Source: Raja brachyura
Taxonomy: Eukaryota
Assembly (NCBI GenBank): GCA_963514005.1
Contig: OY740815.1
Span: 2,232,001 to 2,296,000 of the forward strand
Direction of reading: 5' to 3'
Length of the DNA: 64,000 nt
Part shown: positions 1 to 43,451 of the stretch, one piece after another
How the letters are laid out: the number at the start of each line of letters is the position of its first letter
How positions within the stretch are numbered: the first letter of the stretch is position 1
Translations under genes and position numbers: made by a program
The notes under the pieces: model-generated
What the model saw: only the letters and a program-made list of their open reading frames with translations
Database searches by the model: none
What the model was told of the DNA's origin: nothing

Positions 1-3000
1 GAGCGTTCATATATGCCTATCACCTGTTACACAAACTTACAGCGACCACTTTATAACCAATGAAGCTTGCTCAAGAGTCGAGTGTGTTTTATTGTCTAAT
101 GTCCCAGATAAAACGATTAAATTCTTACTTGCAGCAGCACAATATGATTTGGACATATTTTGAAAAAGGCTTTATACTTGGAAAAACTAGACCATGGATG
201 TTCTGATTTTTTTCATGAAAAGTCTTTTCTTTTCGGGGGGGGGGGGGGGAGTATTTTCTGTTGAAATATTCCACAACTTTCTTTTCCATTTTTGACATCT
301 GCTTTGCAGTAACACAGCGACTCTGTCAACAGCAATCCAGCACGCAAAAATTAAAAAATAAATCCAATTGTGCAGAAAAAGGGTTGCACTTTTGAACCTA
401 CACAAATGACAAAATAATTAAGAATAATTACAGTAAAGGGTAAATCAACCAATAGTATAATCTGATATCCTGTATAATGAGTGTATGAAAGAATAGCAGA
501 TGCTGGTTTAAATCGAAGGTCGACACATCCAGTAGAGTGACATATGTGACCTGTTTGAAATTGCTGTAACTTGGAAGTGCAGGGTTGATTACTTCATGAA
601 CACAGAGATGAAGACATTTAGCACCTCCAGCTTGTGCAGGGATTATATCCACCACCAAAGATAACAGGAATTCTTGGGGGTAACTCCGCAGGACAGACAG
701 CATCTCTGGAGAGAAGGAATGGGTGATGTTTTGGGTCGAGACCCTTCTTCAGACAGATGACACATCACCCGTTCCTTCTCTCCAGAGAAGCTGTCTGTCT
801 CGCTGAGTTACTCCTGCATTTTGTGTCTATCTTTGATTTAAACCAGCATCTGCAGTTTCTTCCTACGCAGGGATCCTTGGGGATTGTGGTCGATTGTAGT
901 AAAGTTGTCACACATCTCTTTGGCCTTAAAGCCGTGACCACCCAGGGGAAAAGGTTCTGACTGAATACTCTATCTATGCCTCTCAAAATTGTATATATTT
1001 CTCCCCTCAAACCTTCTTCTGCAGCCTCTCCAAAGCCTCCACATCCTTCCTGTAATAGGGTGACCAAACGCCATGCATTACTCCAAACACAGCTTGAGCC
1101 AAAATATATTTCCTACAGTCGAGTTGTCCTCAGCTACAGGATACTCTACTCAGTAACTGTAACGATTTGTAACGGTATACAAATGCTGTCTTTTGTTAAA
1201 TCAATTGATTTTGTATTATTATTTTTCAAAATTATGTAACTATTTCTGCATTTAACAATTTAATAATCTAACACTCTAATAATTTATAAACTTAAGATAT
1301 TTCAAATCAATCAAAAAGATCAAATAAACAAAATCACTTGAAATGGCCCAAAATGAAAATTATTTTATTTTTAAGCAGTTGGAGTGTTCAAATCTAATTC
1401 TAAATCTGATATGTTTGTGTCTGGAACTGCAGATGTTCACGTAATTTTCTACATTAAATAGAATTTTGCATGACCATTGTGAAATTAAAATTGATACAAC
1501 TTCTTCCAATTTCAATTCAGATTAATATTTTATTAGCTGAAAGGGAACATATATTTGATAAAGCATAGTGAAAGAGAACGCACACAATTACACGCACAAC
1601 AGTAAGGTCAACCATGCTGCTCTTTCTTCTTGTACCGTTGCAAATGATTGCAAAAATAAAAATAAAGTGTATGTCCATAAACGCCAGCACTTACACCAAA
1701 CGATAAAAGGTGGCGAGTTGAACACAACTTGTGAAGTTTGTAGCACCAAGTTATTTGTGATACTGTCCTTAAAATGTAACACAAGCTACTCAATTTATAA
1801 GTTGGGAGAGGAGCAGAACTTTTCATTACTCATATATTATTACCATAAGTAAGCAGCTCTAAACCCGATCTAGAATGTGTGTCACTGACAAGAATATTGG
1901 TGTTGGTTTATTCTTGTGTCTCGCAAGAGACATTGAAGCGTGCTATCCAAGCGATTCACGCCAGACACGAGGACATCAGGTAGTGCAAAAGAGAAAACAG
2001 AGTTGAGAATAGCGTAACAGCAACGGAGAAACTGCAGATACATTAAAAGTGCAAGGGCCACAACAAGGTAGATTGAGAGATCAGGTGCAAGTATAGGAGG
2101 AGTTAACAGGGGGTGGGTACCTGGTCTATGTGTAGGAAAGAACTGTAGATGCTGGTTTACACCGATGATAGCAAGCATGTTTATTTATATAACACATTTC
2201 AGCAACAAAGCAATTCAAAGTGCTTTACACAAAGCATTAAAGAGCAATCAAAAGCAATTAAAAACAGTCATTAAAAAGATTAGAAAATAAAAACAAGCTA
2301 AAATATAATAAGACTAGTATAAAATACAAGAATAAAAGTCACAGTTATAGACTCAAAACGCTGGAGTAGCCCGGTGGGACAGGCAGCGTCTCTGGAGAGA
2401 AGGAATGGGTGACGTTTCAGGTTGAGACCCTTCTTCAGACAGAGTCGGGAGAGGTCTATGTGATTCACAACTATCTGCAGTTCCGTGCAGAGTTGGGCCA
2501 AGCAGTTGCAAAGCTGTGCTGCATCCTGATAGATGCTGCCTCACCCGCTGAGTTTCTCCAGCATTTTTGTCTACCTGCACCCTGACTAGATGCCTTCTAT
2601 GGTACATCTGTGGAAATTAGTAGGAGGGAAGAGGTGGCATGCCAAACTTCCTTAGCCTTCTGAGGCTAAAGGCATTGGTCTGCCATCCAGGCTGCAGCTT
2701 CAAGGTGGCTGGATGAGGATGAATTGTTGGCGGGATTTACACTGAGGAACCTGAAGTTCTCAACCTTCACCACGTCAGCACTGTTGATACAGCCAGGAGG
2801 GTCCTCCGCCCCACTTCATTAAGAATAAGGAGTAAGCCACTTAGAACGGAGATGAGGAAACACTTTTTCTCACAGAGAGTGGCGAGTCTGTGGAATTCTC
2901 TGCCTCACAGGGCAGTGGAGGCAGGTTCTCTGGATGCTTTCAAGAGAGAGCTAGATAGGGCTCTTAAAAATTGTGGAGTCAGGGGATATGGGGAGAAAGC

Positions 3001-4829: not shown

Positions 4830-4924
4830 TCACTCACTTCGTTCTTTCGGTTCCCGGTATCGCCATTCAATGTATTCGAAGATGTCGCTTTCACTCTCCA
4901 CTGGTAGCGGCTCGCCAGGGATTC
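4830..4924 (-). CDS. POLB: POLB exon 14, terminal coding part ([31 protein letters not shown])
   Basis: acggcag acceptor; C-terminus matches Pol beta ...YREPKDRSE; TGA at 4832-4830; the 14 exons sum to 1008 nt. Confidence 0.97.
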
Positions 4925-4976
4925 CTGCCGTCAACACAGCACAACGTCAATGATGCAACAACCATTTCACTCAATA

Positions 4977-5972
4977 TGTTAAAGCAGGAACTGCAGATGC
5001 TGGAGAATCGAGGGTTACACAAAAAGCTGGAGAAACTCAGCGGGTGCAGCAGCATCTAAGGAGCGAAGGAGATAGGCGACGTTTCGGGTCGAGACCCTTC
5101 TTCAGACTGGTCAGGGATCAGGGAAACGATATAGACGGTGATGTGGAGAGATAAAGAACAATCAATGAAAGATATGCAAAAAAGTATCGATGATAATGGA
5201 AACAGGCCATTGTAAGCTGTTTGTAGTGTGAAAATGAGAAGCTAGTGCGACTTGGGTGGGGGAGAGATAGAGAGAGAAGGAATGCCAGGGCCCGAGGCCT
5301 GAGGGAGAGGTGGGAAGGGGAGGAGGCAGCCTGGGTTAACAGAATTGAGGAAATTCAAAGTTTAAGCCCAGAGGATGCAGACTCCCCAAGCGGAATATGA
5401 GGTGCTGTTCCTCCAACTTGCGGTGTTGCTCACACTGGCCGTGGAGAAGGCCCAGAACGGAGAGGTCGGATACGGAATGGGAGGGGGAGTTGAAGTGCTG
5501 AGCCACCGGGAGGTCGGGTTGGTTATTGCGGACCGTGCGGAGGTGTTCGGCGAAACGATCGCCCAGCCTCCGCTTGGTCTCACCGATGTAGATCAGCTGG
5601 CATCTGGAGCAACGGATGCAGTAGATGAGGTTGGTCTCCTCCATACCCCGCAACACTGCCCTCTCTCCCCATTCCCCCACTCACAACAAGGGCAGAGTCC
5701 CCCTGGTCCTCACCTTTCACCCCACCAGCCAGCACATACAACAGATAGTCCTCCGCCAGTTTCGCCACCTCCAACGCGACCCCTCCACTCGCCACATCTT
5801 TTTTGCATATCTTTCATTCGTTCTTTATCTCTCCACATCACCATCTATATCTCTCGTTTGCCTGATCCCTGACCAGTCTGAAGAAGGGTCTCGACCCCAA
5901 ACGTCGCCTATCTCCTTCGCTCCTTAGATGCTGCTGCACCCGCTGAGTTTCTCCAGTTTTTTGTGTAACCCC
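4977..5972 (-). mobile_element. Penelope-like element: GIY-YIG endonuclease fragment with inverted pseudo-LTRs
   Basis: ORF 5336-5680 NLIYCIRCSRCQLIYIGET...RFAEH...PVAQHFN; ~5010-5183 is inverted relative to ~5797-5971; 15-bp TSD ccatttcactcaata at 4962-4976 and 5973-5987. Confidence 0.88.
5078..5107 (-). ncRNA. Minimal type I hammerhead ribozyme core (Penelope pLTR), sense to POLB pre-mRNA
   Basis: Minus strand GTCTGAAGAAGGGTCTCGACCCGAAACGTC = CUGAAGA, stem II GGGUC/GACCC, GAAA, palindromic ACGU, GUC site. Confidence 0.65.
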
Positions 5973-6097
5973 CCATTTCACTCAATACATCAACTCAGTG
6001 TGCAAGAAAACTGGCGCGGCAGTAGAGTTGCCGTTTTACAGCATCAGAGACCTTGGTTTGATCCTTCCCTCAGGTGCTGTCTGTACAGAGTGTAGGG

Positions 6098-6464
6098 CAG
6101 GGGTCGGCAACCTACTGCCCCCGGGCCGAATGCGGCCCGTAACCCGTAATCACCCGGCCCACAGGCGCCGAGCTCTGGCTGTACCGCATCCTGCGCAAAG
6201 CCGCCAGCACGGCTGCGCACCTTCTGTGAACACGTTTAAGAAAAAACTTCAGATGCTGCAAAAATCGAAGGTAGACATGCAAGGATTGCATGATGCTGCC
6301 TCACCTGCTGAGTTTCTCCAGCACTTTTGTCTACCTTCTGTGAGCGCATGATTTGATGCCTGCCATCCGGGGCGGGATCCATGTGTACTCGTGATAGATG
6401 TGGCCCGCCATCCGCTCACAGACATGCGTCCTGGCCTCTATAGAGAACATATTGCCCACCCCTG
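6098..6464. mobile_element. hAT (Charlie-like) non-autonomous element with a nested Penelope mini-element (6230-6332)
   Basis: Ends CAGGGGTCGGCAAC ... ATTGCCCACCCCTG; 8-bp TSD gtgtaggg / gtgtagag (6090-6097, 6465-6472); inner TSD accttctgtga. Confidence 0.75.
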
Positions 6465-6784
6465 GTGTAGAGGAAGGCGAGCCAGGATAAAGAGGTGAGC
6501 AGGAGGGGTGAGACAGGCTGGTCGTGAAGAGACGAAGGGCAGTCAAAATGACAGAGTGAGCACAATGAGAGAGGACTCTTAGAACTCACAGAGGAGAGGA
6601 GAAATTCTTCAAAGTAAGCATACTTCAAAATAATTGAAGAATGCTTACTTGAAGGGGCAGGTGAGGCAGATTGAGGCAGGTACTGACAGCATTTATCTAT
6701 CTTCATTTAAAAGCATTTTAAAAGCATCTTCATTTAAGACAGCATTGAAAAGACATTTTGACAGGTACATGAATAAGAGAGGTT

Positions 6785-6925
6785 CTTCTTCTCCTTGCGT
6801 GTGGCGTGCACAGCCTAAAGTTGCAGGACAACTTGTTCTATTTGATCTTATTTGATTGTGCACGCCAGGTTGATTGCATTTGTCGAAACAGGGCGGACCA
6901 CGTGAAGGTTGCAATCTCCCACCCC
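6785..6925 (-). mobile_element. Short (AGA)n-tailed retroposon inserted into a CR1 3' UTR
   Basis: Minus strand ends ...gtgcacgccacacgcaaggagaagaagaa; CR1 UTR continues on both sides with a degenerate duplication. Confidence 0.5.
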
Positions 6926-7324
6926 GATAGGGGAGGTTGAGGCATATGGACCAAAACACGGAATGGTGGCACTACAGTAGATGGGGCATCCTGGTCAGTA
7001 TGGGGAAGTTGGGTCGAAGGGCCTGATTCCATGCTCGATGACTCTATGAGAATCCGAGTGGAATGCAGTAATGGGATGGAGACACAAGCAACTGCAGCTG
7101 TGGAATGTGGAGCAAAGACTAGATGGCTGCAGGAACGGGCAGCAGCTGTAGAGACTGTGAGATGTTGACATTTCTAACCTAGCCATCACAGCTTATGAAG
7201 ATACAAGGACCTGCAGATGATGGAATACAGAGCGAAATATGAAGTGCTGGAGTAACTCAGCAGGTCAGGCAGCATCTGTGGAGGGAAACGGACAGGCAGT
7301 GTTTCGTATTTGGGATCTTCCTTA

Positions 7325-7659
7325 AGGGCCTGACCCACTTACCCGATTTTTTCGGTGGCTTGCTGGCAGCCGTCATAGTTGCAGCAGGTTGCCGAAAATG
7401 TTCAACATGTTGAAAATCCAGCAGCGACCAGAAAAAGGTACGACTCTTTGGCCGACTACTCACAACCATACAGGCGTCACGTGCTGATATATCGTGGGGT
7501 GACGCCTGTTTGGTGGTGAGTAGTCGCCCAAAGAGCCGCACCTTTTTCTGGTCGCCGCTGGATTTTCAACATTTTGACATTTTTCGGCGACCTGCTGCGA
7601 CTATGACGGGTGCCGGCAGTCGCCAAAAAAAAAAACCAATTGCATGTGGGACAGGTCTG
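7325..7659. mobile_element. PIF/Harbinger-like palindromic MITE inserted in a Penelope fold-back remnant
   Basis: TAA then AGGGCCTGACCCACTT ... GTGGGACAGGTC ends; long internal inverted repeat; partial copies at 20478-20582 and 22807-22966. Confidence 0.7.
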
Positions 7660-8654
7660 TCGATTCCCTCCCACCCCACCAAGATGCTGTTTGACCCGCG
7701 GACTTCCAGCATTTTGTGCTTTTCTCCGCAGCTTGGAGTCATAATCATCTGCAGTTGGACGAGATTCGAAAACCTCACCGGTAGGGCTGACAGACAATCA
7801 TTTGCATCCCATGCGGTCCAGGGCAGCCTGACACACTAATTTCACATCAGAACGTGGTCAGTTTGGCATCGAAAGTTTCTTCCAACACATGTAACTTCAC
7901 AATAAAACAGACCTTTCAGTTTTCAATGAATGTACCACTTGTAATTTAGAATCTCTCCCAGCATTGACCTTCTGTGAGATCATCCCTTTCTTACCACCCA
8001 GGACTAAATGGTCTCAATTGCATTTATCTTAGTAGTGGTGACCCAAACCATTGACGCAGATATAACTTGATGAGATCGGAAAGCTATTTTCACACCACAA
8101 TCAAAAACATATCGTACCACAGTACAGACGTTTATTGCATTCTCTCTAAGGTTTCTTTGAGTAGAGAAATATTAAAAAAAAAGTATTTTATTGAAACCAT
8201 CATTAAATGTTGTCTAACATACGTGGTGTCAGATCTATAACAAACTAGTTTTTCAGCCAAGCTCTCCTGCTCCACATATGCCTCCCATCCTCTACTCCCA
8301 ACATTATAAACATAGTATAATAAATGATTGTAGACTCATAGAGATAGAGCACTGAAACAGGCCCTTCGGCCCACTGACTCCATACTGACCATCAACCACC
8401 CACTAACCATATCCAACTTTACTCTCTCTATATTGTCATCAATTCCCTACACACAGCACCAGGAGTACCCGGAGTATTGTGTGCAGTTTTGGTCCCCTAA
8501 TTTGAGGAAGGACATTCGTGCTATTGAGGGAGTGCAGCATAGGTTTATGAGGTTAATTCCCGGGATGGCGGGACTGTCATATGCTGAGAGAATGGAGCGG
8601 CTGGACTTGTATGTAGAACGATGAGAGGGGATCTTATTGAAACATATAAGATTA

Positions 8655-11600
8655 AGATTTCAAGATGGCGTCGCGTGCACAACGCGAGGCTCTGCGTCTC
8701 CGTAGTTTTAGCGAGATAGTTTTTTTTTTCCTATTTATACTTACCTTAGTTTTCGCCCGGAGCACTCGAGCGAAGACTCTGTACGGCCGTCAGGAGCTAC
8801 TGGAGCTCGGACGTCTCTACGAACCGGACACCAGAAGCCACAACTTTAAACTGCCGCCGGAGATCATCAGGTCACCGTGGTCTCGCGGACCCGCTCTCCC
8901 AACAGGTAGTGTCCGGAGGCGGCGCAGGGACCGCAAACAGCGACGTGGGAAACGCGGAGGCCACCGGGCTAGGCTGAGATCAGACCCGCACCAGCCAGCT
9001 CTGCCCAGCATCTTCCTCGCGAACGTCCGGTCCCTGGTGAGTAAAACCGACGAACTTCGGCTGCGCATCACCACACACAGACGGATCGCCGACCGCAACG
9101 CCATGGTCTTCACCGAGACATGGCTCACCGACAACATTCCCGACAACGCCGTCGAGCTGGAGGGGCGCACTGTCTTCAGGGCCGACAGATCTGCGGAGGA
9201 ATCCGGTAAGACCAAGGGCGGCGGACTGTGCATCTATGTAAACAACTCATGGTGCACAGACGCTGTCAGGATTGGTAGCCACTGCTCTGCTGACCTAGAA
9301 TACCTGATGTTAAAGTGCAGGCCCTTCTATCTTCCCAGGGAATTCACATCGACTTTTTTTAAATTTTTTTTTAAAATTTCAAAATAGACTTTATTCAAGT
9401 AATAAATATTTACAATACATCAACCGTGCGAAAAATCCATCCGACATTTTCGGAGGCTATACAAATTCTTCCATGCAGTCTATATACATTTTTCAAATTT
9501 TACTAATTAATCCCCCACCCGTGCCACTCATGTGGCCCCCCGGCATGGGATACCTTCCCTTATTTTGAGGGGCGTCTCCACCATACAGTGCCCCCCATGT
9601 CCAGCAGCGGAAGGACCTTAGACTGTGGCCCTCCCCCACCGAATTCACATCGACTGTCATCACTGCAGTCTATGTACCCCCGGACGCTAATGCCAGGCTT
9701 GCAATGGAAGAGCTGCAAGCTGCTATCAGCAAACAACTAACTGCCCACCCAGAGGGGGCTTTTATTGTTGCTGGCGATTTTAACCACTCCAACCTAAAAA
9801 CTGTGCTCCCCAGATTCCACCAACATGTCTCCTGCCCAACCAGAGGTAACAATATTTTGGACCTAGTATATACTAATATTACTGAAGCATACAAAGCCCT
9901 TCCCCTCCCCCACCTGGGACAGTCTGATCACCTCTCTTTGTTCCTGCTCCCCAAATACACACCTCTGATCAGACGTGTGAAACCTACCGCGAGGACAGTG
10001 AAGGTCTGGCCTGAGGGGGCTGTCTCTGTCTTACAGGAACAGTTTCAGCAAACAGACTGGAGTGTGTTTGCCACCCAGGCCACCTTTAACTCCCAAGTGG
10101 ACATAAATTCATACACCTCAACTGTTCTGGACTACATAAGATTCTGCACTGATAACGTCACCACCCATAAAGTGATAAAGACCTTCCCTAATCAGAAGCT
10201 GTGGATGAGCAGGGAGGTCAGACTCCTGCTGAAGGCTCGAGACGCCGCTTTTAAATCTGGCGACGCTGAGGGATACAGCTCATCCAGGGCCAATCTGAAA
10301 AAGGGAATTAGGAATGCTAAACTCAATCACAAGCAGCGGATTGAGGAGCATTTCCGAAACAACTCTGACCCCAGGCGCATGTGGCAAGGAATTAAGTCCA
10401 TTGCCGACTACCATAAAATCAACACCCCCCCCCGGACAACGCCTCCCTTCCTAATGAGCTAAACCACTTCTATGCTCGCTTTGACCGGGACAACAAAACT
10501 CCCGCCATCAAAGTTGCTCCACCCCCGAATGAACAACCCCTCAGTCTCTCCACCTCTGCTGTACAAGACGCACTGAGCAAGGTGAATGAGCACAAAGCTG
10601 CCGGCCCCGATGGCATCCCCGGGCGGGTGCTCAGGGCATGTGCCGGACAACTATCCCTGGTCCTCACTGACATTTTCAATCTGTCACTGGCCCAGGGTGT
10701 CGTCCCCACTTGCCTCAAGACATCTACCATTGTGCCAGTGCCCAAACAATCAGCGACAGGGAGTCTCAACGACTACCGGCCAGTGGCACTCACCCCTGTC
10801 ATCGCTAAGTGCTTTGAGCGGCTGATCCTGGCTCACCTCAAAGCCAGCCTCCCCCCCACACTGGACTCCCACCAATTTGCCTACCGGTCAAACAGGTCTA
10901 CAGAGGACGCCATATCGACGGCCCTACACTCTGCCCTGACCCACCTGGACAGCAACAACACCTACATCAGGCTGCTGTTTATTGACTTCAGCTCTGCCTT
11001 TAACACTGTCATACCCGCTAGCTTGATCACCAAACTCAGCGGTCTTGGCATCTCCACCTCCCTCTGCAATTGGACACTGGATTTCCTCACTAACAGACCA
11101 CAGTCTGTTAGGGTCAACAACCTCACCTCCTCCACTATAACACTGAACACCGGCGTGCCACAGGGTTGTGTGCTCAGCCCTCTCCTCTACTCCCTCTTCA
11201 CGCATGACTGCATCCCCAAGTATGGCTCCAACGCCATCATAAAATTTGCCGATGACACCACGGTGGTAGGACTGATCAGTGATAATGACGAATCAGCCTA
11301 CAGGGAGGAGGTCCAGCACCTGACTACCTGGTGTGCCAACAATAACCTCGTCCTCAACTCCCAGAAGACGAAGGAAATAATTGTTGACTTTCGGAAGAAC
11401 AGAGGGGGCAGACACACCCCCATCCATATAAACGGGACTGAGGTGGAGCGGGTCTCCAACTCAAATTCCTCGGGGTACACATCTCGGAGGATCTGTCCTG
11501 GTCCCTCAACACCTCAAAGCTAATCAAAAAGGCACAGCAGCGCCTTTACTTTCTGAGGAGGCTCAAAAAAGCCCACCTGTCCCCCCAGATCCTGACGAAC

Positions 11601-12107
11601 TTCTACCGCTGCACCATCGAAAGCATCCTGACCACCTGCTTTACGGTATGGTACAGCAGTTGCACCGTGGCAGACAGGAAGGCACTTCAACGGGTGGTGA
11701 AAACCGCCCAGTACATCGTCGGTGCCCCGCTCCCTGCCTTGGATGCCCTCCACCGAAAACGGTGCCTGAAGCGGGCCGGGAAGATCATCAAGGACCCCTC
11801 ACACCCTAATCATGGACTGTTTGCCCTCCTCCCATCAGGGAGGCGGTACAGGAGCCTCAGGTCCCGCACCAGTAGGACGAAGAACAGCTTCTTCAACTAC
11901 ACCATCCGACTGCTGAACTCGGAGCCCAGCTGATAGATTTGTCTGTACCCTGTATTTATTTATTTTCCATATTGCTACCACTGCACTCTGTATTTATTTT
12001 TCTATATCGCTATCACTAAGAACGACGCTAAACTGCATTTCATTGTACCTATACTTGTATTTGTGCAATGACATTAAACTTGAATTGAATTGAATTGAAT
12101 TGAATTG
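8655..12107 (+). mobile_element. Near full-length Rex1/Babar-type non-LTR retrotransposon (APE endonuclease + RT), disrupted
   Basis: ORF pieces 8665-9354, 9656-10462, 10582-11523, 11667-11933 with APE motifs (LANVRSL, FTETWL, AGDFN, SDH) and RT motifs (QFAYR, GVPQG, KFADD); (GAATT)n 3' tail; TSD aagatta at 8648-8654 and 12108-12114. Confidence 0.9.
9355..9640 (-). mobile_element. 5'-truncated A-tailed retroposon (L1/Tx1-like 3' end) inserted in the Rex element
   Basis: Minus strand ends AATAAAGTCTATTTTG plus an A-rich tail; exact 15-bp TSD gaattcacatcgact at 9340-9354 and 9641-9655; removing it restores the Rex frame (PREFTS|TVITAVY). Clade assignment is inference. Confidence 0.75.
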
Positions 12108-12204
12108 AAGATTATTAAGGGTTTGGACGCGCTAGAGGCAGGAAACATGTTCCCGATGTTGGGGGAGTCCAGAACCAGAGGCCACAGTTTAAGAATAAGG
12201 GGTA

Positions 12205-13989
12205 TTCTTATTCTGGTCCATTGGAGAGACCGAGTGGACAGCTATCTGCAGAGCCAAAAGAGATGGGGGAGATATTGAACAATTTATTTTCTTCGGTATT
12301 CACCAAGGAGAAGGATATTGAATTATGTGAGGTAAGGGAAACTAGTAGAGTAGCTATGGATACTATGAGTTTCAAAGTAAAAGAAGTACTGGCACTTTTG
12401 AAAAATATAAAAGTGGATAAGTCTCCAGGTCCTGACAGGATATTCCCTAGGACATTGAGGGAAGTTAGTGTAGAAATAGCCGGGGCTATGACAGAAATAT
12501 TTCAAATGTCATTAGAAACGGGAATAGTCCCCGAGGATTGGCGTACTGCGCATGTTGTTCCATTGTTTAAAAAGGGCTCTAAAAGTAAACCTAGCAATTA
12601 TAGACCGGTTAGTTTGACTTCAGTGGTGGGCAAATTAATGGAAAAGATACTTAGAGATAATATATATAAGTATCTGGATAAAGAGGGTCTAATTAGGAAC
12701 AGTCAACATGGATTTATGCCTGGAAGGTCATGTTTGACTAATCTTCTTGAATTTTTTGAAGAGGTTACTAGGGAAATTGACGAGGGTAAAGCAGTGGATG
12801 TTGTCTATATGGACTTCAGTAAGGCCTTTGACAAGGTTCCTCATGGAAGGTTGGTTAAGAAGGTTCAACTGTTGGGTATAAATGCAGGAATAGCAAGATG
12901 GATTCAACAGTGGCTGAATGGGAGAAGCCAGAGAGTAATGGTGGATGGCTGTTTGTCGGGTTGGAGGCAGGTGACTAGTGGGGTGCCTCAGGGATCTGTG
13001 TTGGGTCCTTTGTTGTTTGTCATATACATCAATGATCTGGATGAAGGGGTGGTAAATTGGATTAGTAAGTATGCAGATGATACCAAGATAGGGGGTGTTG
13101 TGGATAATGAAGAGGATTTCCAAAGTCTACAGAGTGATTTAGGCCAGTTGGAAAAATGGGCTGAAAGATGGCAGATGGAGTTTAATGCTGATAAATGTGA
13201 GGTGCTACACCTTGGCAGGACAAATCAAAATAGGACGTACATGGTAAACGGTAGGGAATTGAAGAATACAGTTGAACAGAGGGATCTGGGAATAACCGTG
13301 CATAGTTCCTTGAAGGTGGAATCTCATATAGATAGGGTGGTAAAGAAAGCTTTTGGTATGCTAGCCTTTATAAATCAGAGCATTGAGTATAGAAGCTGGG
13401 ATGTAATGTTAAAATTGTACAAGGCGTTGGTGAGACCAAATCTGGAGTATGGTGTGCAGTTTTGGTCACCCAATTATAGGAAGGATGTCAACAAAATAGA
13501 GAGGGTACAGAGGAGATTTACTAGAATGTTGCCTGGGTTTCAACAGCTAAGTTACAGAGATAGGTTAAATAAGTTAGGTCTTTATTCTCTGGAGCGCAGA
13601 AGGTTAAGGGGGGACTTGATTGAGGTCTTTAAAATGATGAGAGGGATAGACAGAGTTAATGTGGACAAGCTTTTCCCTTTGAGAATAGGGAAGATTCAAA
13701 CACGAGGACATGACTTTAGAATTAAGGGACAGAGGTTTAGGGGTAACATGAGGGGGAACTTCTTTACTCAGAGAGTGGTAGCGGTGTGGAATGAGCTTCC
13801 AGTGGAAGTGGTGGCGGCAGGTTCGTTGGTATCATTTAAAAATAAATTGGATAGGCATATGGATGAGAAGGGTATGGAGGGTTATGGTATGAGTGCAGGC
13901 AGGTGGGACTAAGGGGAAAAGGTTGTTCGGCACGGACTTGAAGGGCCGAGATGGCCTGTTTCCGTGCTGTAATTGTTATATGGTTATAT
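12205..13989 (+). mobile_element. Young 5'-truncated CR1-clade LINE with an uninterrupted RT ORF (12221-13912, 563 aa)
   Basis: RT motifs QHGF, DFSKAFD, GVPQGSVLGP, KYADD and a CR1 C-terminal domain; (GTTATATG)n tail; short ggta duplication at 12201-12204 and 13990-13993. Confidence 0.92.
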
Positions 13990-16139
13990 GGTAAGCCATT
14001 TAGAACGGAGACGAGGAAACACTTTTTCTCACAGAGAGTTGTGAGTTTGTGGAATTCTCTGTCTCAGAGGGCGGTGGAGGCCGGTTCTCTGGATATTTTA
14101 AAGAGAGAGTTAGATAGAGCTCTTAAAGATAGCGTAGTCAGAAGATATGGGGAGAAGGCAGGAACGGGGTACTGATTGGTATCATGATCACATTGAATGG
14201 CAGTGGTGGCTCGAAGGGCCAAATGGCCTACTCCTGCACCTATTGTCTAGTGCCAGTAAACCTACCAACCTGCACATCTTTGGGTTGTGGGAGGAAACTA
14301 GAGAACCCAGAGGAAAACCATGTGGTCACCAGGAGACAGACTGTGCGAACATGCCTGGATGGATTACTAGGTTTCAAGGGAGATCTTAAGCACCTTTCCA
14401 TTGGCAACTAAGGATGGCCAATTAAATACTGGATCACCCTGTAAAGCGCACATCCCTTTAATGATTATATAAAAGTGTAATATCCTCTCATATTAACATC
14501 ATGAATCTTTTTGAGTCTCCTCCAATTCTTTTCTTTCTTGGAGACGAAAACCATGTATAGTGCTCCCAGCGGGGTCAAGCAGTACTGTGATGCATTTTTA
14601 TATACAGTTTCTGCTTTTAATTTGTAAGCTAATTTTGTTTTTTAAACATTGCTAGAAATCCAAAATAAAACCTAGAACATTCAGGGATGGAGAATACACT
14701 AAAGTTCCCGTCTCACTTACCCAATGTTTTTCAGCGTCCAAATGCTTTATTTCCATATCCCTTGATTTTGTTAGCCCTAAGAGCGATATCTGACTCATAA
14801 CGTTGGGCACATATATCTGGACTATCTCAGCGGGTCAGGCAACATCTCTGGAGAGAAGGAATGGGTGACATTTCCGGTTGAGACACTTCTTCAAACCCTG
14901 ACCTCTGAAGAAGGGTCTCGACACGAATCATCTCCCATTCCATCAATCCAGAAATGCTGCCCGTTCCGCTGGGTTATTAAAGCATTTTGTGTCCACCTTT
15001 GATATTTGTTTATCTTTTTCCACTTGTAGATGAAACTTGGCGCATTATGGTAATCTGCTTCACACCATTACCAGCATTGAGACCACATCATTTTGTCAGC
15101 TATTCAGTGATTTTAGCCACAATATTTTAAGCACGCTCTTGTTCCCATATCGCTCACCAGCATTGGTAATGTTGGCTACAGTTCCTTTATGGTTTGGAGT
15201 GTTATATGCGAATAAATGATAAGTTTAAAACTTTGCACATTCTGCAAAATAGTTATAATAAAGTCCTAGAGTCATACAGCACAGCAACAGGCCCTTCGGC
15301 CCAACTTGCCCATGCTGAGCAAGATGCCCTATGTACTAGTCCTACCTGCCCACAATTGGCCCATGCCCATCTAAACCTTTCCTATCTATGAACCTGTCCA
15401 AATGTTTCTTAAATGTTGCTACAATACCTGCTTCAACCACCGCCTCTGGCAGCTCATTCCTTATACCCACCATCCTCTGTGGAAAAGGTTGCCCGTCAGG
15501 TTCCTATTAAAAGTTTCAAATCTCACCATAAGCCTCTCTCCCCTGGTTCTTGAACCCCCCCTACTCTGAGTAAAAGACTGTGCATATATTTGACTCTGTG
15601 GATCCCATAAGATCTAATCTACGTCTGAAGAAGTGTCTCAATCCAGCCTACCATGGAAAACCTTATCAAATGCTTGTCGACGTCCATGGCTTTGTTCTCA
15701 ATAATCTTTTTGGTTGCTTCTTCAAAAAACTCAGATTCATAAGACACAATCGCCTGTATACAAAACCATGCTGACTAGCCCTGGTCAGCCCCTGTCTATC
15801 CAAATGCATATATATCTTACCCCTCAGAATACTCTCCAGTAACTCATCTCCAAATAGCTCCGTTCTATCTGCACCACCCCTGTCCAGTCCTGATTTACAT
15901 CCGAGACACCTCACATGTCCTCCACCACGTCTGTAACCTCAATTTTTAGGCACCATCCCCACCATGATGTCTAGTCCCTTTGCACCCCCACTCCCCACCA
16001 GGAGGTCCTCAGGTCCATCTGTTCTCTCCACAGATGCTGCCTGACCAGCTGAGTTCCTCCAGCACTTTATGCTTTGCTCACGATTCCAGCACCTGCAGTT
16101 CCTTGTGTCTCTATGCTTCCAAAAGCATTCAGCTCCTAC

Positions 16140-16279
16140 CTGTCACTCCCAATGGACGAATAGTGTACTCATTCAATGTGAAGCCTTTTTCCAGGGCATG
16201 GGTCCTCATGTTCTTGTTAAAAAGATCACTTCCAGTGAAATAAAGCACACCACAGAAATACTGATCCTTTGGAATGAGC
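16140..16279 (-). CDS. POLB: POLB exon 13 ([46 protein letters not shown])
   Basis: cctgcag acceptor, G|GTAGGA donor, 140 nt; YFTGS, N279, R283, E295. Confidence 0.97.
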
Positions 16280-17121
16280 CTGCAGGGGAAACGTACACAG
16301 TTAGCAACCTTTGGCCAAAGGGCAATAAGCTACTGAACAACGGATATGGTTCATTCCTCAACTCATTCACGTTGGGGAACGTGTTCACTTGCCCAATTTC
16401 TGAAATAGTGCCATTTGGAATATCCCTTTTAAATATACATGAATACAAGTACATAAAGGTAATGGCAAGGCTAGATATAGCGACCAGTATTGTTAGAAGC
16501 AACAAAGGGCTCCCAATGACCGCACAGATGAAACCAATTGAAGACTACCATCCTTTCATCGTGAAACAGCCAACAAAAAGTCATACTTCAGCATATATTG
16601 TTAATTTTTAGTTATGCACTAAAACAAAATCATTTTATAATGTTTTAATCTCGTGTGCAATTTAGCAATCCACTTGTTCATCGGCTAATGCACATTGTAC
16701 CATCTAGATCTTATTGTTAGATCTTTGTTTCATCCATTGAAGGGAAAGGGGAGGGATCAGGCTGGTAGAGCTGCTGCCACAAACCACCAGCGACCTGGGT
16801 TCAATCCTGACCTTGGGTGCTGTCTGTGCGGAGTTTGCACGACCTTCCCTGTGACAGTGTGGGTTTCCTCCGGGTGCTCCAGTATCCACATGTCAAAGAG
16901 GTGCGGATTGGTAGGTTAATTGGTCGCTTGTGTGTCGGGTGGAGTAGGATCTGAGGAGAATCAATGACAATATGGCGAGAATAAAGATGGATTAGATTAG
17001 TGGTAATGGATGGTTGATGCTCAGTTTGGGCTCGGACGGCCAAAGAGACTGTTTCCATGTTGTATCTTTCTCACTCTCTCGCTCTCTCTCATTTTTATTT
17101 TTATTCCAAGGCTAAAATTGA

Positions 17122-17438
17122 TTTTAGTTTAGATTTAGTTTAGATACAGCGCGGACACAGGCCCTTCAGCTCACCGAGTCCGCACCGACCAGCGATCCCC
17201 GCACATTAACACTATCCTACCCACACTAGGGACAATTTACACTTATACCAAGCCAATTAACCTACAAACTTGCACGTCTTTGGAGTGTGGGAGGAAATGA
17301 AGATCTCGGAGAAAACCCACGCGGTCACTGGGAGAACGTGCAAACTCCCTACAGACAGCGCCCGTGGTCATGATCGAACCCGGGTCTCTGGCGCTGCAAG
17401 CGCTGTAAGGCAGCGACTCTACCTCAGCGCCACCGTGC
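17122..17438 (-). repeat. tRNA-derived SINE (HE1/V-SINE-like), representative copy
   Basis: A-box TGGCGC..GGTAG, B-box GGTTCGAT, CR1-like 3' tail GGGCCTGT..CCGCGCTGTATCT(AAACT)n; other copies at ~16760-17065(+), 18790-18980(-), 26715-27028(-), 29710-30017(-), 33117-33441(-), 44055-44630(+), 47230-47450(+), 50178-50484(+), 55951-56241(-), 56960-57240(-), 60753-61023(-), 61795-62080(+), 63390-63645(-). Confidence 0.85.
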
Positions 17439-17649
17439 TACCCTTTTCTCTTTATCTTAATCTATAGTTCAACTATTTTTCTTGATCTTAATGTTTTTAA
17501 TTAATTGCAGATACTTTAGTGTGAGTTCAATTAAAGTTCCCGTTTCCTTTACCTTTTAAAAGGAGCCACCCATCTTCCAGTTGATGGTCCAATACCCGAT
17601 GGAAAGAGTATGTTTTTGAGTAAGTTTAATTATTATTTAATTAGCTCAC

Positions 17650-17714: not shown

Positions 17715-20700
17715 CTGTTCAAAAAGGGCAGGGAAAGAGAGAGTTAACAATTCACCAATCTTTATCAATTGTCAGAAAAACAAGCAGCACGAGTAAAGAA
17801 TCAATTCTTGAACAGTCGGGCAACAAAAAAAACCACAGAGACATATTGTGGGTATTTTTGCAATGAAAAGGAAGCATGGATTTAATTGTACTAGTACATT
17901 GTGTGCCGTATGTAAACAAGTTTAAGAACTATCTTTCTTACAGATTAAACTAAAAGTGTGAACAGACCAATATTTTTCATTGATTGCACGATTTGGTGAT
18001 CAGGCAGCAACTGTGCAGAGAATTGCACCATCAAACTAGATAAGTTGCATAAAAGTAGACAAAAAATGGAGAGAAGGGGTAGGTAACGTTTCGGGTCGAG
18101 ACCCAAAACGTCGCCTAGTCCTTTTCCCAATGGATGCTGCCTCACCCGCTGAGTTTCTCCAGCATTTGTTGTCTACTTTTGATTTTTTTCAGCATCTGCA
18201 GTTCCTTCTTAAACAAGTTGCAATAAAATCCAGTTTTCTGAGAAGGGATGTAATATAAAGGAACTGCAGATGCTGGGTTATACCAAAGATAAGCACAAAG
18301 TGCTGGAGTAACTCAGCGGGTCAGAGAACATCTCTGGAGAACATGAATAGGTGACATTTTGGATTTGAAGAAGGGTCCCGACCCAAAATGTCACCTATCC
18401 ATGTTCTTCAGAGATGCTGCCTGACCCATTGAGTTACTCCAGCACTCTGTGAAAGGAATTGTCTTGATGAAAATGACACAGATTGATTAAATATTCCTCT
18501 CACACCACGAGCCACATCTTTAAAGAACTCAGTTATTGCCAAACACCAAGTGGGGAATAGTTTAAACTTGCTCAAAACAGTAACATTAACACTAATTTAT
18601 GCATCATTAAACAAGTAACATTCTGTCCTCTAAAGATTGGCGTCTTCAAATTTATTTTCACTTAAAAATAATTCTTGGGATGATTTGTGGCAATATTGTG
18701 AAATATAAAGAGAATGTAAAGATAAATTGCAAGAGACTATAAATGGTGTGGTAGAGCAGGCAGGCGCAAGTTGATGATATTTAATACACTTCAGCCCACC
18801 GAGTTGGCTCCGACCAGCGATCCCCGCACACTCACACTATCCCACACAAGCTAGAGATCATTTCCAATTATGCCAAGCCAATTAACCTACAAACCTGTAC
18901 GTCTTTGGAATGTGGGAGGATACCGGAGCGCCAAGAGAAAACCTACGCAGGTCACGGGGAGAACGTACAACCTCCTTACAAGCAAAGGTAGACACAAAAT
19001 GCTGGAGTAACTCAGCGGGTGAGGCAAATGGTGACGTTTCGACCAGTGTGTGTTAAGCTTGAGAGACAAGGTAGCTCATGGAAAATCCATGTACAACGCT
19101 CCATCCAAAAACTGTTTCTGACAGGAGCAATTTCATTTGGGAGGCAAAAAAGTGTTGAATCCAATGTATTTTTGTTCATTCAGAAACAATGAATCATGGG
19201 TGTACTGTTAGACGTAAATGTCCCAAAACGTCACCCATTCCTTCTCTCCAGAGATACTGCCTGTCCCGCTGAGTTACTCCAGCATTTTGTGTTTATCTTC
19301 CATCTAAACCAATATCTGCAGCTCCCTCCGACACATGGGCGTACAGTTCACAACTTCTAATCGACCATCAGCATTATTAAACAATCTGCAATCCGACTTT
19401 TAGAAAAATAGTTGCAAGTGTAAATATATATCGAATGTATTTTCTGCAGTTCGAAACAGTTCATTACAGGAGAAATTTTACAATACGATACAACTTTATT
19501 TATCCAAGGAGGGAAATTGATCTGCCAACAGATCAATTGAATTTTCTATTCAATTAGGACATTATATAATTTTGTTAAATCCATATATATATTCTAAAAC
19601 TGCAACGCCTATGCTGATAGTGACATTGTTCATAACTTACATGCTGAAGAAATGTCTTACTTAAGTATAATCCAACCTTGTTTTATTACTAACCACAGAT
19701 ATGCAATCCTCCTCAATGTACACTGAGCATAGAATAGTGCACCTACAAGCAGCTGCATGTACGTGGCTCCTTCATTAAAGGCCGCCTGCATGAACTTTGC
19801 CAAATTCATTTGTTTGATGGACGTTATCCATCTTCCTCGGAATTTATTACTGACAATTTAATTGTTATGCAAATACAAATTAGAAATAGAATGAGAAGAA
19901 GGAACTGCAGATGCTGGTTGACACCGTAGACACAAGAAGCTGGAGTAACTCAGCGGGGTAGGCAGCATCTCTGGAGAGAAGGAACAGGCCACCTATTACT
20001 TCACCGCTGCAATGTTGTTGACAATGCAGTTGAACTCCAATGATCATTGGCTAGGAGTTGCTTACAATGTGCACACAGCAAGGGCTGATCTGCTAAGAAT
20101 CCTCTGTGAGCAAAGACCCTATGTCAGTCTCATGAAGGAGCAATGTGTTTGAGGCTATGATTTTTAGTTCAGGTAGTGGTTTAGATGTACAATGTGGTTC
20201 TGTGTGGAGCGCTGGGCATCCTATGGGTTCAGTCTATCGCACTCTACCTCATGTAAAAGCGACTCTTTTGAGAAACCCTTCTGCCCATGCTGCCAGTTAC
20301 TCTTGATGTGAGAAGGACAAAACTGTGCCCAGTTAAAAGGCCTTTATGAAATGGTGAGTTGCAAACTGAGAAGTATTGTGGTTGTCACCGTGTAATGATC
20401 AATGGGCCAAGTAGTTCAGGGTTTCTTTGATCCTCATCATTAAAGGCAGCGCATTAAATAGCCTTTAAGGTTACAAGCCGCCGAAAAATGTCAAAATGTT
20501 GAAAATCCAGCAGCGACCAGAAAAAGGTACGACTCTTTGGGCGACTACTCACAACCATACAGGCGTCACCCCACGACATGTCAACATTTTGGGTGACCTA
20601 TGACCTATATACAGCATGGAAATAGGCTCTTTGGCCCACTGAGTCCACTCCGACCATCCATCTTCCATACACTAGTCTGAACGACACCACACTGAACTAC

Positions 20701-22110
20701 ACTGCACTTCTGCATCAGTCTGAAGAAGGGTCTGGAAACATATAGGTCAAATCAGGATATTAGGGTTACAGAATATACTGTAAGACCACAGTAAGGGAAG
20801 GCCGGTCTGAGCCAAATGAAGTTTACAATGGCTCTGTTGTTCAAAACTTAATAATACTTCCTCATCGGTGTCTCCAAAGCAGCTGTCACAAAAAGTCTTC
20901 TTGGGCCGGCTGCTCCAGCAGGTAAGCAGGGAAGCAGAGACAGCAAGGTGCAATGCTGTGATTCAACGGGCAATCAATATTCAGACAAGGTAGTAAAACA
21001 GACTATTGCCTGATCGATGCCTCCACTATCAAAGCTTCAGGCAAAGTCTCAACCAGCACTTCAAAGATGCACAACTATCTGATAATAGTTCATTCTAAAC
21101 AGACCAACAGGCAGCAGCTGCCTCACCACTAATAACACTGTATTCAATTTAGCTCAGTTACAATTAACCACAATCCATACCACCCGGCATCCACTTTTAT
21201 TACAAACAGTGGTCATGGCTCTTTCCGCTGAGAAATAGGTTATAATTAAAAAGTGATAGTGTATGGACATGATTAAATACCACAAATCATTCTATTTCAG
21301 GGTCTTGCAAATTTTTCATTTTAGCAAAAAACCTATCGAACAAGTTGCCAGAAACGTGAAGCCAAGAATGGCAGGGTAGCTATTTTGTCACTTTCTTGCA
21401 GTTTAGTTTAGTTGAGAGATACAGCTCGGAAAAAGGCACACTTTTCATATCTCCATTTTTTCTCTCCCCTGACCCTCATTCTGAAGGAGGTCTAGTCCGC
21501 AGCGTCACCCATTCCTTTTCTCCATCAGATAAATGTGGTCTGGATGGCAGTGATTCTGGTGGATCCATTGCTTAAATGATTAGGCTAAATATTACTGGCA
21601 ATTGTTAACATTTTACTAAGTTTTGGACAGAATTTGCCATTGCAGAATTCCAAAACATATTGACTAATATACAGCAGCAAATTCATCACTACCTTCCAAT
21701 CCACAGCAGTATCGGCACTCAGACACCATTTAGATCTGAGATTCTAAAGACATTCATGGGTTTGAACGGGGAGAGAAAGATTAGTTTTTTTTAAATGTTT
21801 TAGTTATTTTTAAGAATGTTGTGTTTTTAAATATCAGAGAACAAATGTTGAGCCAAATCTCTGCTGCCCACCTTATCTTCTGTCTGAGCCTGTCTGGGTG
21901 AGAGTGTCAGACCTGCATCACTGAAACCTAGTCGTCCAACCGGTAGCTGTACAGAAGGCAAGTGAGATTAGTTCTCTTCTCCGGTAGATTAGTGTTAGAG
22001 ATATAGCATGGAAATAGGCCCTTTGGCCCACTGAGTCCACTCCGACCATCCATCTTCCATACACTAGTCTGAACGACACCACCACTGAACTACACTGCAC
22101 TTCTGCATCA

Positions 22111-22140
22111 GTCTGAAGAAGGGTCTCGACCCGAAACGTC
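22111..22140 (+). ncRNA. Minimal type I hammerhead ribozyme core (Penelope pLTR)
   Basis: GTCTGAAGAAGGGTCTCGACCCGAAACGTC, intact consensus core. Confidence 0.65.
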
Positions 22141-23510: not shown

Positions 23511-23540
23511 GACGTTTCGGGCCGAGACCCTTCTTCAGAC
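23511..23540 (-). ncRNA. Minimal hammerhead core, sense to POLB
   Basis: Minus strand GTCTGAAGAAGGGTCTCGGCCCGAAACGTC; stem II retained via a G-U pair. Confidence 0.6.
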
Positions 23541-26396: not shown

Positions 26397-26602
26397 AGAC
26401 ACAAAATGCAACTCAGCGGGACAGGCAGCATCTCTGGAGAGAAGGAATGGGTGACGTTTCGGGTCGAGAACCTTCTTCAGACCAAATCTAATCGTCTGAA
26501 AAAGGGTCTCGACCCAAAATGTCACCCATCCCTTCTCTCCAGAGATGCTGCCTGTCCCACTGACTGTCTGTGTTCGGTTTAAACAGTTCCTTCCTATACA
26601 GG
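26397..26602. mobile_element. Fold-back Penelope-derived mini-element with hammerhead-like cores on both strands
   Basis: Minus core at 26453-26482, degenerate plus core at ~26495-26525; TSD ttgactttgtt at 26386-26396 and 26603-26613. Confidence 0.75.
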
Positions 26603-36245: not shown

Positions 36246-37646
36246 AGACAACTCACTGCATATTCAGAAATAAAGAGCCACAAAAACCTGCAGATGCCTG
36301 AATCTTGAGCAAAAGAAAAATAACTGGAGAATCACAGAGGGACAGTCAGCATCTGGGGAGGGAGGGATGAACCCTGCACAGTTGCTGCCTGACATGCTGA
36401 GGTCCTCCAGCACTTCATGTTGTCTGTCCATTCCCTCCGCAACTGCTGTCTGAACAACTGAGTTCCTGACTTCACAAATGGCTGGATTTGTGCTTCAGTA
36501 TAGAGTCATGGAATTGCAAGGCGCATAAGCAGGCCCTTTGGCCCATCGAGTCCATGCCAAACTTTTTCTCATCCACACCAATCCAGCAAAAATGGCAACT
36601 GAGAGAGATCTCATCCATGCCAGGCAATATATCACCCTGATATCTAATAGCTCCTCCTTCTCAATCGCTGGCTTTACCTTGCACTAAACGTTATTCCCTT
36701 ACCATGTGTCTATACACTGTGAATGGATCGATTGTAAACATGTATTGTCTTTCTGCTGACTGGATAGCACGCAACAAAAGATTTTCACTGTACCTCAGAA
36801 CATGTGACAATAAACTAAACTCCTACGAATTCCATGGTGCTAAAATGCAGCTGCCTCCTTCAGTGAAGGGGCAGTTTGATCAAATTCAACCATTAGGTCT
36901 GTCATTAATGCCCATCAAAATATTTTCAATTTCTCAGTTAGTTTCACCAACTAGGCACCATTCCCATTTGTCCAAACCCTTTTGCTCCAATCTTCTTCTG
37001 GCATTCTAGTAAGTAGCCTAGCAAGGCTGGATTTAGTTTCCTTGCTGTGTCCACTTGTGGCGCCAGGACTGAATTAGCAACGTCAGTGATCAAACTAGAA
37101 TCCCATTTATCAAACAACATACAATAATGGAGCTACTATGCACGATTTAATGATGTGAACAATCAGATGGGAATTGGTTCCTTACCATGGCTAGTGAAGT
37201 GGGATTCAAATTAAATGCACATGTAGCCTCGACGCTTGTAAATAAATGTATTACAAAATGTGGTAACGTTGCACGGCATGATGCTAACATGAAACCGTCC
37301 AAATGGTTCAAAGTCAATCTTTTAAGTCGCTCAGCATTTTTGTCGGATTTCGTTCCCCAGCCAATTTTCTCACACTCTATTTCTGTTAATGTACTGCTCC
37401 TTGGGAAATCCTTCACTTTGTATGTTCTAAATGAATTTCAAAAGGGTGTTTGCTCATCATCAAGCATACCTGTGGATAGCTTGATTGTAATCACATATAG
37501 TCTTTCTGCTGACTGGACAGCACACAACAAAAAAGCTTTGCCTCGGCACACGTGACAATGAAAAACTCAACCAGACAGCATCCAGGTGACATTTATTTAT
37601 GCAAGAAACCTGAAAATGGAATTGGAACAGTCCAGTCAATATTGAG

Positions 37647-39939: not shown

Positions 39940-40327
39940 TGTTTAAGAAAGAACTGCAGATGCTGGAAAAATCGAAGGCAGACAAAACTGCTGGAGAAAC
40001 TCAGCGGGTGAGGCAGCATCAATGGAGCGAAGGAATAGGCGATGTTTCGGGTTGAGACCCTTCTTCAGACTGATGTCCGGGGGGGGGGGAGGAAAGAAAG
40101 GAGGAGGCAGAGACAGTGGGCTATGGGAGAGCTGGGAAGGGGGAGGGAAAGGAGGGAGAAAGCAAGGACTATCTCAAATTAGAGAAGTCAATGTTCATAC
40201 CGCTGGGGTGTAACCTGCCCAAGCGAAAATGAGGTGCTGCTCCTCCAATTTTCACTGGGCCTCACTCTGGCAATGGAGGAGGCCTTTACAGGACAGAAAG
40301 GTCGGATTCGGAATGGGAGGGGGAGTT
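39940..40327 (-). mobile_element. Penelope-like element 3' fragment (GIY-YIG C-terminus + pseudo-LTR)
   Basis: Reverse complement is homologous to 43110-43450 and 5340-5490. Confidence 0.8.
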
Positions 40328-42795: not shown

Positions 42796-42952
42796 CTAAA
42801 AAGTAAAAAGACAAAAATAATTAAAATTCACGATGGTAATTAAAAGCAGAAGTGACATTCGTGACTGTGTGGCAGATCTATCATTCACTTCAACTCTACT
42901 GTGGTAAAATTACGTGGATATGCAGGGATCATGTGCAGGCAATGTTTAAAGG

Positions 42953-43451
42953 CGATCTCCTCCAACCTCATCTATTGCACCCGCTGCTGTAGATGTCAGC
43001 TGATCTATATCGGTGAGATCAAGCGTAGGTTTGGCGATCGTTTCACCGAACACCTCCGCTCGGTCCGCATTAACCAACCCGATCTCCCGGTGGCTCAGCA
43101 CTTCAACTCCCCCTCCCATTCCGAATCTGACCTCTCTGTCCTGGGCCTCCTCCATGGCCAGAGTGAGGCCCACCGGAAATTGGAGGAGCAGCACCTCATA
43201 TTCCGCTTGGGCAGTCTGCACCCTAGTGGCATAAACATGAACTTCTCCAATTTCCGGTAGCCCTTGCTGTCTCCTCCCCTTCTCAGCTCTCCCTCAACCC
43301 TCGGGTTCCTCCTCCTCCTTTTTCCTTTCTTCTCCCCGCACCCCCCCCCCCCCCCACCCTACATCAGTCTGAAGAAGGGTTTTGGCCCGAAACGTTGCCC
43401 ATTTCCTTCGCTCCAGAGATGCTGCTGATTTTCCCCAGCACTTTTGTCTAC
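42953..43451 (+). mobile_element. Penelope-like element 3' part (GIY-YIG + pseudo-LTR with hammerhead core)
   Basis: ORF ...NLIYCTRCCRCQLIYIGE...; CTGAAGA at 43369 and GAAAC at 43389; TSD caatgtttaaagg at 42940-42952 and 43452-43464. Confidence 0.88.

Follow-up and report, generated by a model that had tools for sequence, protein, structure and literature searches.

Do hammerhead-ribozyme cores scattered through the introns of a host gene cut the pre-mRNAs that carry them, and by what route did so many copies arrive? A sequence-only reading of the window (the whole stretch of 64,000 nucleotides that was analysed) had described its most common short repeat as a hammerhead family with intact cores in the sense strand of POLB introns. 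A motif scan placed POLB on the minus strand, from ~54288 to 4830, and the identity of the gene was settled by exon 13, which matched DNA polymerase beta in a PDB search (E 1e-25; the same search with the 30-aa last exon returned no match). The six cores that had been named all lie where they were placed and on the strands given, and the repeat is indeed real and abundant: the window holds 20 copies with at most 9 mismatches to the 30-nt reference core 22111-22140, compared to a mean of 0.1 and a maximum of 1 in first-order Markov resamples (n=30). The POLB exons and the copies that matter here are the following.

4830..4924, minus strand: coding part of the last POLB exon (translation; a spliced contig joins it to exon 13).
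16140..16279, minus strand: penultimate POLB exon, exon 13 in the usual numbering (PDB match E 1e-25; contig joint).
5078..5107, minus strand: intact minimal core (CUGAAGA, bulged A, stem II, GAAA-CG-UC), sense to POLB, with a predicted cut 3' of 5078.
23511..23540, minus strand: intact core that belongs to a short copy and lies sense within a POLB intron (reference-core match, intactness check).
22111..22140, plus strand: intact core that belongs to a short copy and runs antisense to POLB (reference-core match, intactness check).
26410..26569: head-to-head palindromic pair of short copies, both damaged, with cores at 26453-26482 (minus) and 26494-26523 (plus).
42922..43427, plus strand: 5'-truncated copy of another subfamily, antisense to POLB, with an endonuclease remnant at 42922-43257 and a core at 43367-43396.
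39941..40327, minus strand: truncated copy with an endonuclease remnant and a core at 40041-40070 whose ACGU palindrome is broken.
2351..2440, minus strand: short copy with a core at 2411-2440, downstream of the POLB stop codon.

The predicted cut site of the 5078 core lies 154 nt from the last POLB acceptor, as had been estimated (about 150 nt). Six sense cores do lie within POLB introns, but an intact state, judged by core, palindrome, four pairs in stem II and two in stem I, is limited to those at 5078 and 23511, because the core at 26453 has a stem II mismatch and that at 40041 a broken palindrome. The core at 2411 is in no POLB intron but sits 2.4 kb downstream of the stop codon, and the core at 43367, correct in place and strand, is not the intact form it was called but a variant with a GUU triplet and G-U pairs that, like 22111, is antisense to POLB. 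Three window cores (5078, 40041 and 43367) come directly after GIY-YIG remnants detected by tblastn.

The cores have a type I layout (GU, CUGAAGA, an unpaired A, stem II GGGU/ACCC, GAAA, CG, UC, then AC or GC), with CUGAnGA and GAAA-NN-UH in type I order, a G10.1-C11.1 pair in stem II, an unpaired base after A9 and an ACGU palindrome at 15.2-16.2 without a true stem III. Stem I measures 2 bp in 63 of 83 descriptor matches, in agreement with the earlier estimate, and at most 4 bp in all 83; the stem I of 4-5 bp expected of Penelope-like element (PLE) hammerheads was not found in the skate cores. Across subfamilies the 2-bp stem I is kept as U-A or U-G and one subfamily variant retains stem II pairing as G-U, and no two-sided compensatory change in stem II was seen across the subfamilies compared. 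The exact 28-mer core occurs 50,608 times in the genome of 2.70 Gb (25,374 forward, 25,234 reverse), versus 0 matches for the reversed-sequence control. A generic minimal-hammerhead descriptor, a check that had been proposed, gave 83 matches in 1,425,375 bases but none in any of 5 resamples, and 81 of the 83 belong to the Penelope-like pseudo-LTR (pLTR) core family. The other proposed check, an Rfam scan, produced no hammerhead match in the window; its 25 matches were at chance level, mostly to miRNA-like hairpins, and 0 reached the gathering score. The catalytic G12, which lies within a CpG, is the most changed core column (kept in 235 of 310 copies, G->A in 66). Among these copies, which were selected by core likeness, A13, A14, A15.1 and U16.1 are changed in 25/992 positions (2.5%) versus 259/4,712 (5.5%) in the flank, and the non-CpG catalytic bases are changed in 2.5% and 8.6% versus 5.5%. 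Genomic copies would decay neutrally via CpG loss.

The source of the cores became apparent from a search with a shark relative, which uncovered many long open frames; among 20 such loci examined, six had frames of 1,203-1,221 codons. At five loci (L063-L066 and L071) the core is present at both ends, ~4,030 nt apart and with the same flanks as at 5078, so that the full-length element reads pLTR - ORF - pLTR with identical cores. This agrees with the earlier assignment to the known minimal type I hammerheads with a palindromic ACGU of Penelope pLTRs. The single ORF of L064 encodes 1,209 aa, reverse transcriptase (RT) followed by GIY-YIG endonuclease (RVT_1 E 5e-4 and GIY-YIG E 2e-3, both under the Pfam cut-offs), and its relative P0018 passes both cut-offs. 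The ORF contains the motifs DKG, GTRMGP, YIDD and IYIG. Its linker, CNRKRCYTC at aa 1076, has the form CX4CX2C and fits the CX2-5CxxC pattern common to Neptune and Nematis, which points to a position in one of these two clades (PMC8557442). L064 itself forms a partial tandem, and its inverted 5' copy is missing the final 33 nt (the tail), an arrangement known for PLEs (PMC8557442, PMC3846280). Genomic copies are 5'-truncated, often with an inverted 5' arm, flanked by target site duplications (TSDs), and end +66 or +100 past the cut site; thus pLTRs, partial tandem, inverted 5' copy, tail and TSD, the traits of endonuclease-positive PLEs, are all present. Opposite-strand cores lie within 1.5 kb of 141 of the 310 cores. 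We also note that three annotated skate proteins (P0001, P0002 and P0003) end in the endonuclease of the Penelope-like element, P0001, a LINE RT fragment fused to it, being probably a gene-model artefact, and that ~0.45-1.11 Mb of G000:C54 holds 10 of the best 150 endonuclease matches, three with identical scores, which suggests a locally amplified block.

The family had been interpreted as non-autonomous and retrozyme-like. Most copies are in fact short and non-coding, yet the full-length elements of 1,203-1,221 codons, the GIY-YIG remnants and the lack of a regular tandem array do not conform to that description. Only 20 of 267 same-strand gaps measure 500 nt or less, with no run of three units at one spacing in 1.43 Mb of genes, and neither tandem units of 150-450 bp nor a canonical type I hammerhead with a 6-bp helix I was found. 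Non-LTR retrozymes resemble the skate copies in being short, non-coding, hammerhead-bearing and pLTR-related, but they are described as tandem repeats of 150-450 bp that have canonical type I hammerheads and form circular RNAs, whereas the skate copies carry minimal motifs and are scattered as solo or inverted stubs (PMC7229834; bioRxiv 10.64898/2026.07.22.740005). The latter reports tandem retrozymes from one chondrichthyan and cleavage of 1/9 Xenopus dimers. Because full-length elements with open frames carry this core and its flanks at both ends, the core family is the pLTR hammerhead of an autonomous element, not a retrozyme array. It is close to certain that the cores are minimal hammerheads carried by the pLTR of a young, autonomous family of Penelope-like elements; they may self-cleave as dimers or with the element protein.

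The core nearest to the last POLB exon belongs to such a truncated element, a 996-nt insertion with 93-96% identity over aligned bases to 18 full-length or long copies. Its parts are as follows.

4977..5972, minus strand: single 5'-truncated Penelope-like insertion with an inverted 5' part, the endonuclease end, and a 3' pLTR with hammerhead and tail (BLAST to L064).
4962..4976, no strand: target site duplication, left copy, 15 nt (flank comparison).
5973..5987, no strand: target site duplication, right copy, 15 nt (flank comparison).
5342..5635, minus strand: GIY-YIG endonuclease remnant, end of the element ORF (tblastn; Pfam GIY-YIG E 0.0015, below cut-off).
5633..5800, plus strand: inverted internal ORF fragment (98% to L064 element positions 7069-7236).
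5798..5977, plus strand: inverted partial pLTR without tail (BLAST to L064).

Relatives of the endonuclease remnant carry RT plus GIY-YIG, and the closest, 85% identical, is named from Leucoraja erinacea, which suggests that the host is a skate-like cartilaginous fish. The core of the inverted pLTR (5876-5905) has lost G12, and 124 nt of the inverted arm are 96% complementary to 5006-5129. The same last intron contains a LINE (8656-11933, plus strand) with APE and RT remnants in several frames, and the plus strand of 12119-13912 carries a 597-aa open CR1-like RT frame (RVT_1 E 5e-35) of a young LINE fragment. Intron 1 of POLB is filled by a 3-kb purine-only, GA-rich low-complexity tract (51100-54100) with frames of >1,000 codons on both strands; in the assembly it may be expanded or given a wrong size. 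Elsewhere, 20609-20733 and 22001-22126 form a 126-nt local duplication, 97.6% identical, that ends within the hammerhead core and leaves a half core at 20718. Head-to-head pLTR stubs form perfect or near-perfect hairpins at 37642-37803, 58688-58833, 18258-18454 and 682-862; they score as miRNA precursors, though below gathering thresholds, and may be a source of dsRNA or small RNAs. ARAGORN found no tRNA in the window, and a faint resemblance to an A-box and B-box on the antisense strand was therefore set aside.

The claim that sense cores dimerise within a pre-mRNA and cleave introns often enough to have an effect on POLB and other genes draws on the intact core, stem II and palindrome at 5078 and 23511 and on the weak activity of PLE minimal hammerheads as dimers in vitro (PMC4209133). 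These two cores, however, lie 18.4 kb and two exons apart, and the ACGU duplex that would join two cores has 4 bp and -3.1 kcal/mol. Both are moreover predicted to be sequestered by antisense copies: the inverted arm (5977-5854) is transcribed ~800 nt before the 5078 core in the POLB pre-mRNA, and in the predicted fold this core is fully paired to 5876-5905 with a stem II probability of 0.0, while the 23511 core, with a complementary core 1.4 kb downstream in the transcript, pairs with 22111. None of nine local minimum-energy folds (0/9) contained the hammerhead. In addition, a 1,636-nt contig, presumably of a transcript, from run X14, identical to the window, has joins at 4923-16139 and 16278-17649 with GT..AG ends; it splices the last POLB intron normally across the 5078 insertion. 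Run X14 further includes a contig with a skip of ~300 nt between 9339 and 9641, inside the LINE at 8656-11933.

The proposed depletion of intact sense-strand cores from introns was likewise not seen in a strand census of 22 spectrin-repeat and myosin genes plus POLB (23 genes, 1,425,375 bases), for which gene spans and strands were taken from Pfam exon matches, one 276-kb span was assumed to be a single gene and nested genes were included unscreened. Intact cores numbered 36 sense and 33 antisense (sense fraction 0.52, 95% interval 0.40-0.64), exact cores 20 and 18, and all cores 160 and 150 (310). Eleven intact sense cores fall within the 276-kb spectrin-repeat gene (again if its span is one gene), and intact pairs no more than 10 kb apart comprise 6 sense and 9 antisense. 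When intactness was defined less strictly, sense cores outnumbered antisense ones by 80 to 56 (p 0.048, one of eight contrasts), a deviation towards excess and not towards depletion. The census rules out only strong depletion of sense cores, nothing finer. As hammerhead cleavage within an intron may leave splicing intact and slow cleavage is tolerable (PMC2995048), missing depletion is no proof of silence and cannot separate no cleavage from tolerated cleavage. We therefore regard low-level cleavage compatible with splicing as something that may occur at intronic cores and gene-affecting dimer cutting as very improbable; the cores in host introns are, with good confidence, inert passengers. 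A lone core in a host pre-mRNA, with a 2-bp stem I, no stem III, no near partner and often an antisense arm, would have no meaningful cleavage rate.

How the copies arose can be approached through their 5' ends, for which young copies were anchored 3' of the cut site (position 0) and aligned to a natural full-length copy. Among 50 young copies, 21 of the 40 at risk began within -34..-28 (0.075 per base), compared to 1 of 19 within -100..-35 (0.0008 per base) and 2 of 50 within -8..+8 around the cut site (0.0024 per base). In roughly two of every three young copies the start falls 28-34 nt before the cut site, at the 5' edge of the ribozyme. Across the genome, 26,834 exact cores reach -29 but only 9,216 have native sequence to -40, so that about 16,000-17,600 copies start between -40 and -29 (the patterns compared are not identical at the 3' end, and perhaps a tenth of the lost long copies is due to mutation); short copies thus exceed long ones ~2:1. 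By hand count of the first 100 copies listed, the commonest apparent start is -30 (40 copies), followed by -31 (28). The G at -30 is kept in 88 of the first 100 listed copies, and G is enriched at -31, where it makes up 25 of 40 non-native cases (hand count), many of these being template jumps on the internal GGGTCT. A cap-derived extra G between TSD and start was not consistent in short copies. Near the cut site itself 280 genome matches begin, as retained by a filter that passes about half; the first 100 listed (hand count) comprise 48 at exactly 0, 11 at -1 and ~27 at +1, and a wider view revealed no clear peak (~6 of roughly 50 truncation starts over 17 positions, hand count). A small cleaved fraction among the templates may exist.

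Of 46 short copies, which include 11 inverted ones and a few of other subfamilies, 12 are flanked by exact TSD-like repeats of >=7 nt (7-14 nt), and in 13 a colinear repeat bridges the two flanks. Since TSDs and colinear flanks abut the start, the short copies carry no upstream exon. Their 3' ends lie at +62..+74 or +99/+100, as in long copies. At the 5' side, fold-back junctions whose loop measures 3 nt fall exactly on -32, and template jumps on -30.

We consider a young autonomous PLE that leaves inert intronic stubs and run-off short copies to be the best overall explanation, with a probability of about 0.7. Its run-off step, in which the short copies are cDNAs that ran off the end of an RNA starting at the ribozyme edge, is somewhat favoured on the basis of these genomic ends. 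The element transcript would start at ~-31 in the upstream pLTR, where CCAGTCT or TCAGTCT, which fits the initiator consensus YYANWYY, would serve as initiator. Reverse transcription would start at the +66/+100 site, which is present in both pLTRs: from the 3' pLTR it would give long truncated copies such as 4977-5972, and from the 5' pLTR it would run off the RNA 5' end after 100-130 nt and give short copies. The templates of the short copies would have been uncut, because these copies read through the cut site, and the fold-back junctions at -32 and jumps at -30 fit a physical template end. That the majority class consists of "strong-stop" products, with transcription starting on the first hammerhead base and the hammerhead doubling as core promoter and transcript 5' end, has in our estimate an even chance. 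Against a start at -31 stand the inconsistent cap G, the mode of apparent starts at -30 and the Penelope element of D. virilis, in which an intron separates the hammerhead from a start site well upstream of it (PMC2377424, PMC4209133).

The sharp common 5' boundary, the TSDs and the ~2:1 ratio would also be expected if the short copies were a self-propagating non-autonomous family, SINE- or retrozyme-like, in which a few 130-nt masters whose first bases are those of the hammerhead are transcribed and mobilised in trans, and animal retrozymes have been proposed to be pLTR-derived (bioRxiv 10.64898/2026.07.22.740005). Short copies, however, were found in every one of the seven subfamily groups, have the same +66 and +100 ends as long copies and show both variants of a marker at +13 (18 G, 2 A), as long copies do (22 G, 1 A), and the 267 same-strand gaps include no three-unit run at one spacing; we judge such a family improbable, although some short copies may have been mobilised secondarily. 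A boundary set by processing, whether by splicing at an acceptor (polypyrimidine, CTGAC, CAG|TCTGAAG), by a barrier to RT, by a snap-back hairpin or by the element endonuclease nicking the edge of the hammerhead, is a more serious contender but still unlikely. A pyrimidine tract, a CTGAC-like word and CAG lie just 5' of the core in all long subfamilies (e.g. 5108-5135, minus strand), the D. virilis intron ends at helix I (PMC4209133), the fold-back junctions fall at exactly -32, and a fold that joins -28..-19 to the tail is weakly predicted (z -1.6). Conversely, TSDs and bridged flanks adjoin the start without an upstream exon, the -30 G, the last intron base if the boundary were spliced, is kept in 88 of the first 100 listed copies, and long copies with the acceptor-like tract are distributed 50 sense to 43 antisense in introns. 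Inspection of the L064 3' UTR by eye showed no obvious splice donor. As a separate structural observation, the 5' catalytic strand of L064 (-28..-19) is predicted to pair with tail positions +90..+99, which excludes the hammerhead fold (z -1.6, weak); the 131-nt unit folds weakly better than shuffles (z -1.61).

The motif, the element and the shapes of its insertions are already in print. Minimal hammerheads in the pLTRs of metazoan PLEs are said to have been treated by Lunse et al. as well. That work is cited on PLE minimal hammerheads in PMC6765202, and Cervera and De la Pena described metazoan PLE pLTR minimal hammerheads in 2014, including solo copies and close opposite-strand pairs (PMC4209133). 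The skate cores share with these the type I order, the CUGAnGA and GAAA boxes, the extra base 9/10.1, G10.1-C11.1, the palindromic 15.2-16.2, thousands of solo copies from truncated elements and close opposite-strand pairs; they have a stem I of 2 bp, versus typically 4-5 bp and 2 bp in D. virilis, a stem II of 4-5 bp, and at least 50,608 exact copies versus ~9,000 in the richest genome named there (PMC4209133). Like endonuclease-positive PLEs with a Zn-finger linker (Neptune/Nematis, PMC8557442), the skate element is built as pLTR - RT - CX2-5CxxC linker - GIY-YIG - pLTR, with partial tandems, an inverted 5' copy, an optional 30-40-nt tail and TSDs; it differs in that its 1,209-aa ORF has a long proline-rich N-terminal part and begins 135 nt after the cut site, and in that copies of 100-130 nt sharing a single 5' boundary predominate. 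In Poseidon PAc of Anolis carolinensis, RT starts internally at two tail-defining sites and works mainly on uncut RNA, and the ribozyme depends on protein (Frangieh et al. 2024, PMC11167929). PAc and the skate element have in common two tail-defining 3' ends, a hammerhead near the ORF start and an uncut RNA template; by contrast, the PAc start codon lies inside the hammerhead, and the RT start sites were mapped there, with no clustered 5' ends at the ribozyme edge reported in the available text. No published account of the skate family or of its 5' clustering was found in the literature searched, which included one PMC4209133 supplement without any skate or shark term; another supplement of that paper, beyond the search, may hold a chondrichthyan motif.

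For the host, the modest 23-gene test indicates that letter-perfect cores, by the tens of thousands, are tolerated in the sense strand of introns, with no hidden transcript burden. For the family, 5' ends at the edge of the motif and not at the cut site lend genomic support to the use of uncut RNA as template, which was found in vitro. The clustering also names one base at which to seek a transcription start; if the strong-stop reading is true, >16,000 insertions would record, in vivo and base-resolved, the use of uncut RNA in Penelope integration.
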